The translations under genes and the position numbers were made by a program. Shown piece by piece: positions 9,394 to 10,953 of a DNA stretch of 30,927 nt. A model generated the notes under the pieces. It was given only the letters and a program-made list of their open reading frames with translations, had not been told where the DNA came from and did no database searches. Source of the DNA: Escherichia phage ESSI2_ev129; the sequence record NC_049394.1; one strand, given 5' to 3'. Positions within the stretch are counted from its first letter, which is position 1; each line of letters begins with the position of its first letter.

Positions 9394-9838
9394 TCTGTGC
9401 CTTTAAATGCTTTTGCCACACCATTGGCCACGGCTATTCCCGTATATTCCCAGTGACGATTGTCCAGCCAGATAGCGGCGGCGATATCGTCAACGGAGTC
9501 CTGACCATGCGGTAAATAATGACGGCGGAGAATTAAATATTGTTCGAGTCCATTTCTTTCAATTTCATGGACTCGCTTTGTCAGTTTTTTACTTCAATTT
9601 CCAGTTCTGGCGCGTAAATATCATTTACTTTGCCAACCAGTTGAAGTGCTGCACCCGGACGCTTTAATACTTCGGCCAGCGCTTCTTTACTCTCCGTTGC
9701 CACAATTCGCGTCAGATAGTTATGTGCCGGGGCGACTTTGTTATCCATCGCCATTTCATTAATAAATTTGTTATAGGCGGTCTGGTTCGGTTCAAAAACA
9801 ATATCAACACCACAAACACACAGTTTAATTTTTTCCAT
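9390..9838 (-). CDS. Tail assembly chaperone, predicted -1 frameshift fusion product (gpE+E' / gpG-GT analogue)
   Basis: After the A_AAA_AAC heptamer (plus coordinates 9584-9590) the -1 frame is open for 64 codons (LTKRVHEIERNGLEQYLILRRHYLPHGQDSVDDIAAAIWLDNRHWEYTGIAVANGVAKAFKGTE). It stops at TGA 9390-9392, overlapping the tape-measure ATG 9391-9393. Confidence 0.6.
9581..9838 (-). CDS. Tail assembly chaperone, short (zero-frame) product
   Basis: 85-aa ORF immediately upstream of the tape measure gene, ending ..GTA AAA AAC TGA, i.e. with an A_AAA_AAC slippery heptamer at its last codons. Confidence 0.65.
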   Translation of the reverse strand: MEKIKLCVCGVDIVFEPNQTAYNKFINEMAMDNKVAPAHNYLTRIVATESKEALAEVLKRPGAALQLVGKVNDIYAPELEIEVKN

Positions 9839-10124
9839 CGTTAAGTCTCTCTCTTAAATTAATTTCGTCCACTAACTGATTATGACGCGCAGCACACTGA
9901 CCATAAATTTCAGGATAAATTGTCAGTAATTCCGCTGCGTCTTTTCCTGTCGTACCGTTCAGGCGCGGCAGCTGCGTGGTGCATTTAGTTTTCAGGTTTT
10001 CCTGATAACGCACGCTCGGTACCGGCTGCGGCGCTGTTGTACATGCTGACAAACTCATCAGACAGACAACGATTGGTAAAAACGGGCTTAAGTATTTCCG
10101 TGCGTATCTCACGCGGTGCCACAT
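9825..10124 (-). CDS. o-spanin (outer-membrane lipoprotein, Rz1/LysC-like)
   Basis: 99 aa. N-terminal signal with lipobox LSAC (..PIVVCLMSLSAC), Pro-rich mature region with Cys. Starts in the +1 frame inside the i-spanin gene and extends past it (overlapped architecture). Confidence 0.6.
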   Translation of the reverse strand: MWHRVRYARKYLSPFLPIVVCLMSLSACTTAPQPVPSVRYQENLKTKCTTQLPRLNGTTGKDAAELLTIYPEIYGQCAARHNQLVDEINLRERLNDGKN

Positions 10125-10323
10125 TTTTTAACGCCTCCAGTTTATCTTCCAGCTCTCTGGCCGAATCACTGGCAATGCCCTGCATTACTTTTCGCGATTC
10201 ATTACCGGCCACCTGCGCCGCTGTATTGATCGCCAGCTCTAAGCTGTCACGCCGCCAGTCAGCGGTCAGCCAGCCCCAGACAAACGCCAGCGCCACCACA
10301 ACCAGCCACTGCCCGCTGCTCAT
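9985..10323 (-). CDS. i-spanin (inner-membrane, Rz/LysB-like)
   Basis: 112 aa. N-terminal TM helix (LVVVALAFVWGWL) then charged, helical periplasmic region. ATGA overlap with the endolysin stop at 10323. Confidence 0.6.
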   Translation of the reverse strand: MSSGQWLVVVALAFVWGWLTADWRRDSLELAINTAAQVAGNESRKVMQGIASDSARELEDKLEALKNVAPREIRTEILKPVFTNRCLSDEFVSMYNSAAAGTERALSGKPEN

Positions 10324-10664
10324 CAGCGCACCCCGCTATGTTCCAGACTGAAATGATTACCATCCGGTCTGGATTTGAAGCGTCCGCCCCAGGTACCACC
10401 CAGTGATTCCCAGTATTCCCCCAGTGGCAGATAATCTTCTGTGCGGGTTTTGTACTGACCGTTCACGAACAGATTGAAATCCACCGCCAGCCGCTGAGTG
10501 TGCAGACTGTTAGAAATGCCGCTGCCTTTCTTCGCATTCAGCGCAGCCTGTTCTGGTGTGCGGTACGCTTCACCAAACGTCAGCCACATGCCATTTGCAT
10601 TGGCATACTGAATTAACAACGCAATCATTGATGTAAACCGTTGCTGTTTTTCACTCAGGGTCAT
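10323..10664 (-). CDS. Endolysin, peptidase M15 family (L-alanyl-D-glutamate or D-Ala-D-Ala peptidase type)
   Basis: Track ORF is 10323..10781; start refined to ATG 10662-10664 (MTLSEKQQRF...). 113 aa with Zn-ligand pattern ..SLHTQRLAVD..DGNHFSLEH.. typical of M15 endolysins. Confidence 0.75.
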   Translation of the reverse strand: MTLSEKQQRFTSMIALLIQYANANGMWLTFGEAYRTPEQAALNAKKGSGISNSLHTQRLAVDFNLFVNGQYKTRTEDYLPLGEYWESLGGTWGGRFKSRPDGNHFSLEHSGVR

Positions 10665-10953
10665 TTGTCTTGCTCCCGTTCTGCTTTCCCGCTGCGCGTC
10701 TGCGCAGCCACACTTCCACCGCCTGATAACCGGCAATCCCCAGCGCCGCCCCCAGCCCCTGAATGGCCAGCGGACTGGCATCCGGGATCTGAATCAGCAC
10801 CGCCCCGGCCACCACTGAAACCAGACTGCCCAGGATCACGCGACCGGCAAACAGGCGCGGCGTGATGGGGTCATTACTGGTCAGCACATTGCCGATGGCA
10901 ATCAGTGCGCCAATGATCAGCAGTGAATAAAGGCTCTTTTCATGCTCCTGCAT
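10651..10953 (-). CDS. Holin (three predicted TM segments)
   Basis: 100 aa. Hydrophobic stretches LYSLLIIGALIAIGNVL, VILGSLVSVVAGAVLI and LAIQGLGAALGIAGY, with a charged C-terminus (RRRAAGKQNGSK). Directly upstream of the endolysin, overlapping it by 14 nt. Confidence 0.6.
   Translation of the reverse strand: MQEHEKSLYSLLIIGALIAIGNVLTSNDPITPRLFAGRVILGSLVSVVAGAVLIQIPDASPLAIQGLGAALGIAGYQAVEVWLRRRAAGKQNGSKTNDPE

Follow-up and report, generated by a model that had tools for sequence, protein, structure and literature searches.

Position of the lysis cassette in the late gene block of the HP1-like Escherichia phage ESSI2_ev129

The order tail tube, lysis genes, tail chaperone and tape measure is already known for the HP1-like phages and has been recorded since the HP1 genome of 1996 (GenBank U24159), which reads orf24-hol-lys-orf25-orf26-orf27. 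In this HP1-like prototype, the late region from orf20 to orf27 comprises L-R-S-sheath (orf23)-tube (orf24)-hol-lys-spanin (orf25)-chaperone (orf26)-tape measure (orf27). The genes hol and lys, which lie between ORF24 (tube) and ORF25, have been experimentally characterised, and the HP1 lysis proteins have been tested for lysis (PMC7312051); the position of the lysis genes in HP1-like phages has also been stated in general terms (PMC10612066). Furthermore, the work that defined the HP1-like genus remarked that its tail genes are generally without similarity to those of P2 (PMC2771037). The record of phage P2 gives the order O-N-M-L-X-Y-K-lysA-lysB-lysC-R-S, V-W-J-I-H-G and FI-FII-E-E'-T-U-D, in which L/X and R/S flank the lysis genes Y-K-lysA-lysB-lysC, and sheath-tube-E-T form an uninterrupted series in a separate F operon that follows the fibre genes. 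In this study, we analysed a stretch of 30,927 nucleotides (nt) from Escherichia phage ESSI2_ev129 (NC_049394.1), hereafter the window, whose lysis cassette lies, unlike that of P2, between the tail tube gene and the chaperone and tape measure genes, in the same order as in HP1. A preliminary description of the window, made from its letters, had given the P2 order correctly, as the P2 record confirms, and had taken the order in the window to be unusual, the mark of a rearranged late operon that possibly arose by modular exchange.

We consider it very probable that this position is the ancestral and standard layout of the HP1-like Peduoviridae rather than a rearrangement specific to this phage, and that it represents a constant slot with exchangeable cargo. 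Homologues of the tube protein were found in 74 phage records, and the gene order was checked in the described representatives whose records were opened. The same order occurs in 13 described phages (ESSI2_ev015, HP1, HP2, F108, K139, Kappa, PV94, phiO18P, phi3, ESSI-2, YenM_324, SI7 and C5a), and these span nine genera besides that of HP1. The open reading frames (ORFs) in the slot of C5a are unannotated, and the lysis genes were placed there by a match to the Pesticin-type lysozyme family (PF16754). In the closest known phages, namely ESSI2_ev015 and ESSI2_ev040 (Quadragintavirus) and Cronobacter phage ESSI-2 (Seongnamvirus), the order tube-holin-endolysin-spanins-chaperone-tape measure is identical to that of the window. 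Moreover, a survey of IMG/VR covered 80 loci with a tube protein at least 70% identical, and all 76 relatives that reach the chaperone gene show this order; three of the remaining four loci end too early, and the fourth, L061, is truncated. The block is also present in 39 of 5426 complete E. coli genomes. Synteny comparison with HP1-like and P2-like genomes thus finds the order to be standard in a described lineage, which is the very observation that the preliminary description had itself named as speaking against it. The claim of rarity fails because P2 had been taken as the sole reference.

Two of the surveyed loci are irregular. In L061 (6404-12366), the prophage breaks off within the tube gene and host HlyD/ABC-transporter genes follow, and in L017 (7894-8841), which is among the 76, an IS30-like transposase (HTH_38 + rve) is located between the chaperone and tape measure genes. 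Both are cases of prophage decay and not alternative layouts.

Four points weigh against our reading. Among the described representatives opened, Pseudoalteromonas phage ACA1 is the sole exception to the placement of lysis genes between the tube and the chaperone and tape measure genes; its slot is without a recognisable holin or spanin, and therefore the layout is not universal. The structural model of the sheath protein, discussed below, is of moderate confidence (predicted local distance difference test, pLDDT, of 68), because the alignment behind it is shallow, with all sequences at least 80% identical. The co-transcription and translational coupling that we propose for the cassette are read from gene spacing only. 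Finally, the lysis functions and the specificity of the M15 peptidase are predictions only.

The slots of ACA1 and C5a contain genes that had escaped annotation. In ACA1, a single gene, gp35 (locus L007, 5450-6070), separates tube and chaperone; it matches the endolysin family phrog_33083 (E = 4e-20), yet the paper on ACA1 calls the endolysin unidentified. For C5a_36 (locus L093, 4674-5225), a hypothetical protein by annotation, the match to PF16754 (E = 3e-40) identifies a Pesticin-type lysozyme. Each of these two apparent exceptions thus retains, in the slot, a gene that resembles a lysin gene.

The window is essentially a whole HP1-like phage of the P2 family (Peduoviridae, Quadragintavirus) and a close relative of Escherichia phage ESSI2_ev015. 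Nucleotide identity to ESSI2_ev015 is 97.7% over the tail and lysis block (7400-13800) and 95.9% over 95% of the bases of positions 1-25000 (identity × coverage about 0.91), the latter being the part of the window on which membership in the genus of ESSI2_ev015 and ESSI2_ev040 was assessed. From about 230 to 17170, every long ORF is on the minus strand, and the late genes form a single tightly packed minus-strand block that extends from the head genes through the baseplate genes. The order of this block is O-N-M-(small variable gene)-L-R-S-sheath-tube-holin-endolysin-i-spanin/o-spanin-chaperone (with its frameshift form)-tape measure, followed by W-like, J-like and I-like genes, a tail fibre gene, a fibre chaperone gene and baseplate genes. 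This corresponds to the HP1-like late order, L-R-S-sheath-tube-lysis-chaperone-tape measure-W-J-I-H-G, and comparison of the maps of P2 and the window did not recover the P2-type late order of the genus Peduovirus.

The head module is of the P2 type, with the portal and large terminase genes on one strand and diverging from those for scaffold, capsid, small terminase and head completion, and it is homologous to Q/P and O-N-M-L of P2 and laid out in the same way. The tblastn identities to P2 are 42% for P, 33% for Q, 30% for O, 27% for N, 30% for M and 31% for L, and matches to P2 are limited to the head genes, rep, int, Orf91, the C-terminus of the fibre chaperone and the holin. The tail proteins are of the HP1 type and not of the P2 type (PF10772 Phage_HP1_Orf24, PF10758, PF10963); they have no BLAST similarity to FI, FII or T, and R and S of P2 gave no tblastn match. 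This result reproduces the remark that HP1-like tail genes are dissimilar to those of P2 (PMC2771037). In comparison with HP1, the tube protein is 59% and the sheath protein 52% identical. Rfam and tRNA scans of the whole window gave no match.

According to a different explanation, which extends the preliminary description, the late operon is unusual and recently rearranged, and a P2-type lysis module has left its place between head genes and R/S for the tail block. The order is indeed unlike that of P2. Moreover, the holin is 54% identical to P2 gpY (E = 2e-35), which is higher than for any other protein common to the window and P2 (terminase P follows with 42%), and the lipobox region of the o-spanin resembles that of P2 LysC, the gene for a LysC-type o-spanin overlapping the i-spanin gene in both phages. 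However, the position is common to every HP1-like genus examined, including genera whose cassettes are unrelated to that of P2, and to all of the informative IMG/VR relatives. The M15 endolysin is unrelated to P2 K, which is a lysozyme-type endolysin, BLASTP did not match the i-spanin to LysB, and an equivalent of lysA is absent from the window. We therefore regard such a transfer as very unlikely. The shared position and the cassettes of non-P2 type indicate that the slot is older than this phage, and exchange with P2-like coliphages is suggested for single genes only, above all for the holin. What stands of the rearranged operon is the difference from P2, and what stands of modular exchange is the swapping of individual lysis genes within the slot; the position of the cassette is fixed and was not relocated.

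The cargo of the slot differs among the relatives. HP1, K139, F108 and PV94 have a holin of the HP1 family (PF16080), with only HP1 and F108 clearing the Pfam cutoff and K139 and PV94 falling below it. The endolysin of HP1, K139 and F108 belongs to Phage_lysozyme (PF00959), that of PV94 is an endolysin by annotation only, and both a holin and an endolysin are annotated in the slot of HP2. Phage phiO18P has a holin of the lambda-S type (PF05106), an annotated endolysin without a Pfam match and an inserted DNA methyltransferase gene. The Pseudomonas phage phi3 has an endolysin of the Phage_lysozyme type and no annotated holin, an endolysin is annotated in the slot of ESSI-2 and a holin is not, and C5a has the Pesticin-type lysozyme as its endolysin and no identified holin. 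The enterobacterial phages YenM_324 and SI7 share with the window a gpY-type holin (PF04550) and an M15 peptidase. The HP1 proteins, a pinholin of the HP1 family and a signal-arrest-release (SAR) lysozyme (PMC7312051), are not homologous to the gpY-type holin and the cytoplasmic M15 peptidase of the window. In addition, a DksA-like zinc-finger gene lies directly after the tube gene in K139, Kappa, PV94, phiO18P, phi3 and C5a, which are marine and Pseudomonas members.

Within the enterobacterial clade, the identity of the holin is uncoupled from that of the tube; in locus L013, the tube is 99% and the holin 56% identical to the window proteins, and in L087, the corresponding values are 71% and 82%. 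When the first ORF after the tube gene was compared in L009-L088, holin identity to the window fell into three classes (100 or ~86%, ~64-70% and ~51-57%) that do not track tube identity. To judge from these sequences, modular exchange is a matter of individual lysis genes within a fixed slot and not of a relocation event in this phage. A more general proposal, that the HP1-like tube-chaperone junction is a fixed recombination slot in which lysis genes are swapped individually, with P2-like coliphages among the partners, fits the closeness of the holin to gpY, the uncoupling of holin and tube, and the different holin and endolysin families of the genera, and we put it forward tentatively, as a possibility that we hold to be rather less than even.

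The junction between the o-spanin and chaperone genes takes several forms. In K139 (locus L004, 6694-7272) and in the independently sequenced Kappa (locus L094, 4294-4872), the two are one continuous ORF of 192 amino acids (aa), of which residues 1-99 match phrog_456 with the lipobox LLSGC and residues 105-192 match phrog_1214; an internal Met marks the join. The genes are separate in PV94, and those of the window lie in different frames with an overlap of 14 nt. The overlap in the window and the fused ORF in K139 and Kappa lead to a bolder version of the proposal, in which tight coupling of o-spanin and chaperone may functionally balance lysis with tail assembly.

The four lysis genes and their neighbours are listed in Table 1.

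Table 1. Features of the lysis cassette and the adjoining tail genes, with positions in the window
Feature	Position	Strand	Evidence
gpR-like tail terminator/completion protein, 168 aa	13243..13749	-	PF06891 P2_Phage_GpR, E 1.7e-23; phrog_65 tail terminator
gpS-like tail completion protein/Neck1, 235 aa	12539..13246	-	phrog_26, E 7e-33; weak PF05069 Phage_tail_S match below curated cutoff
Contractile tail sheath (predicted), HP1 orf23 type, 375 aa	11415..12542	-	PF10758/DUF2586, E 2e-135; phrog_907 'tail sheath'
Tail tube (predicted), HP1 orf24 type, 151 aa	10963..11418	-	PF10772 Phage_HP1_Orf24, E 8e-64
Holin, P2 gpY family, 100 aa	10651..10953	-	PF04550 Phage_holin_3_2, E 6e-39; phrog_175
Endolysin, M15 zinc peptidase, 113 aa	10323..10664	-	PF13539 Peptidase_M15_4, E 3e-11; phrog_1768/465
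i-spanin, N-terminal transmembrane segment, 112 aa	9985..10323	-	phrog_1152 Rz-like spanin, E 8e-35
o-spanin lipoprotein, 99 aa	9825..10124	-	PF23793 LysC, E 2.6e-6; phrog_2425, phrog_456
Tail assembly chaperone, gpE equivalent, HP1 orf26 type, 85 aa	9581..9838	-	PF10963 Phage_TAC_10, E 6e-37; phrog_1214
Predicted -1 slippery heptamer A_AAA_AAC	9584..9590	-	X_XXY_YYZ phase, last two sense codons of chaperone gene
-1 frame extension of chaperone, gpE+E' equivalent	9390..9583	-	fusion product ~148 aa
Tape measure protein, 655 aa	7426..9393	-	PF10145 PhageMin_Tail, E 4e-22; phrog_28 tape measure, E 1e-103

On the minus strand, 9825-10953 runs exactly from the stop of the o-spanin gene to the start of the holin gene, as the preliminary description had it, and its calls of a holin, an M15 endolysin and overlapped i-/o-spanins between the tube and the chaperone and tape measure genes all hold in Pfam and PHROG. 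The holin has three predicted (hydrophobic) transmembrane segments and a basic C-terminus, as expected of a small membrane holin. The metal-ligand motif of M15 peptidases can be read in the endolysin as SLH55TQRLAVD62 and D101GNH104, with H55, D62 and H104 present, which points to a muralytic enzyme with an intact catalytic motif. A signal or SAR segment was not seen in its sequence, and therefore the endolysin should depend on the holin; a sequence search of solved structures gave no match for it. The endolysin most likely starts at 10664, at an ATG behind a GGGAG ribosome-binding site, which gives 113 aa. A longer ORF of 152 aa (start 10781) was rejected, since its extension is the holin gene read out of frame, and the relatives and the tblastn matches begin at the shorter start, where there is a good ribosome-binding site.

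The spanins are of the two-component kind, an i-spanin with a transmembrane segment and an o-spanin lipoprotein encoded out of frame. The o-spanin gene starts within the i-spanin gene and ends beyond it, which is the 'overlapped' architecture. Its product begins with MWHRVRYARKYLSPFLPIVVCLMSLSA followed by C, a lipoprotein signal whose lipobox, LSA/C, aligns with the lipobox region of P2 LysC. In the RefSeq record of ESSI2_ev015 (NC_049395 gp11), the o-spanin is a hypothetical protein of 62 aa without signal peptide or lipobox; reading 99 aa from the ATG at window position 10124 restores the lipoprotein signal and the alignment with P2 LysC.

Upstream of the cassette, the 375-aa and 151-aa proteins had been called sheath and tube by position, with the reservation that they might be something else, in which case the junction would be an artefact of positional annotation. 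The reservation was reasonable, as neither protein has BLASTP similarity to P2 FI or FII, searches of the PDB gave no sequence match to any solved structure, and the Pfam names (DUF2586, HP1 Orf24) are uninformative. Because sequence comparison gave no match, fold prediction was needed, and the structures of both proteins were predicted from alignments of database homologues. The predicted folds match solved contractile-tail sheath and tube (Hcp-like) structures. On the basis of these models, the 375-aa protein is the sheath and the 151-aa protein is the tube; the fold searches refute the other identification, to which we leave next to no chance, and the positional calls were correct. Immediately after the L-like gene come the R-like and S-like genes (PF06891, phrog_26), in agreement with the preliminary description. 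The start of the L-like gene (13746-14333, minus strand) is ambiguous: the ORF begins with a GTG at 14333, the GTG used in ESSI2_ev015 corresponds to window position 14249, and the PHROG match begins from a Met at about 14201.

The genes of the cassette are closely packed. The gap from the tube stop to the holin start is 9 nt, and overlaps are 14 nt for holin and endolysin, 1 nt for endolysin and i-spanin (start and stop in ATGA), 140 nt for i-spanin and o-spanin, and 14 nt for o-spanin and the start of the chaperone gene. Because this spacing leaves no room for signals of its own, the cassette would be transcribed together with the rest of the long late operon, and its translation would be coupled to that of the tail genes. 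An autonomous, moron-like insertion amid the tail genes, equipped with a promoter and a terminator of its own, would agree with the different cargo of the genera and with the additional genes that the slot can take up, as seen in the DksA-like gene of six phages and the methyltransferase gene of phiO18P. However, we consider this extremely unlikely, as the flanks are the 9-nt gap and a 14-nt overlap, with no intergenic space, and in GC content the cassette region (0.556) resembles the neighbouring tail genes (0.536-0.560). In addition, promoter-like and terminator-like sites did not exceed the number expected from shuffled sequence, and no such sites on the coding strand bracket the cassette, in a search by the sigma-70 consensus that promoters within coding sequence could escape. 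The P2-type late-activator motif TGT-N12-ACA, which is a motif of P2 and may not be that of this group, had 3 matches against 7.6 expected, and none was near the operon start or the cassette; this count is uninformative about late promoters.

Under co-transcription and coupling, the timing of lysis would be set after translation by holin triggering and not by separate transcription. The gpY-type holin would open the inner membrane, the cytoplasmic M15 peptidase would then cross it and cut peptidoglycan cross-links, according to its predicted specificity, and the complex of i-spanin and o-spanin would act last and disrupt the outer membrane.

Downstream of the cassette, the pair of chaperone and tape measure genes is as previously described (PF10963, PF10145), and the chaperone gene ends in an in-phase slippery heptamer. 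Behind it, the -1 frame is open for 63 further codons, and its TGA stop overlaps the tape measure ATG; this extension accounts for the apparent gap of 187 nt between the two genes. The predicted site mirrors the -1 frameshift of E/E+E' in P2, and the chaperone gene of HP1 ends in the same A_AAA_AAC site. An in-phase heptamer (AAAAAAC/G/A) with an extension was scored in 11 relatives with annotation, which represent ten genera and in which the shifted frame ends about 22 nt or less from the tape measure start or just past it; in ESSI-2, where the chaperone gene is unannotated, the same heptamer is visible by eye. At the level of sequence, the gene is thus a chaperone of the gpE/E+E' type with a conserved in-phase slippery site, and the frameshift signal strengthens the chaperone call.

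As the arrangement is found throughout one subgroup of a phage family that has been studied well, it has little value as a discovery. The gains are practical: HP1-type proteins that carry DUF names are supported by fold as sheath and tube, the start of the o-spanin is corrected, and a predicted chaperone frameshift site is documented. P2 is the wrong single reference for synteny in HP1-like prophages.

A minor observation concerns the junction of M (small terminase) and L (head completion), where an ORF of 78 aa is present (14296-14532, minus strand). Nearly all of it is a tandem repeat (14321-14505) of 4.1 copies of 45 bp (15 aa) with 98% matches, and its His-rich product repeats GAHTHTVGAHSHSLG. 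The ORF matches the Pfam family 'Phage tail fibre repeat' (PF03335, E = 4e-7) in 5 stretches, and its sole match in the phage collection, at 44% identity, is to a hypothetical protein from Burkholderia phage FLC10. The same place is occupied by an unrelated gene of 65 aa in ESSI2_ev015 and by only a 97-nt gap in ESSI-2. The M-L junction looks like a variable small-gene slot, which in this phage holds an unusual free-standing HxH-repeat protein.

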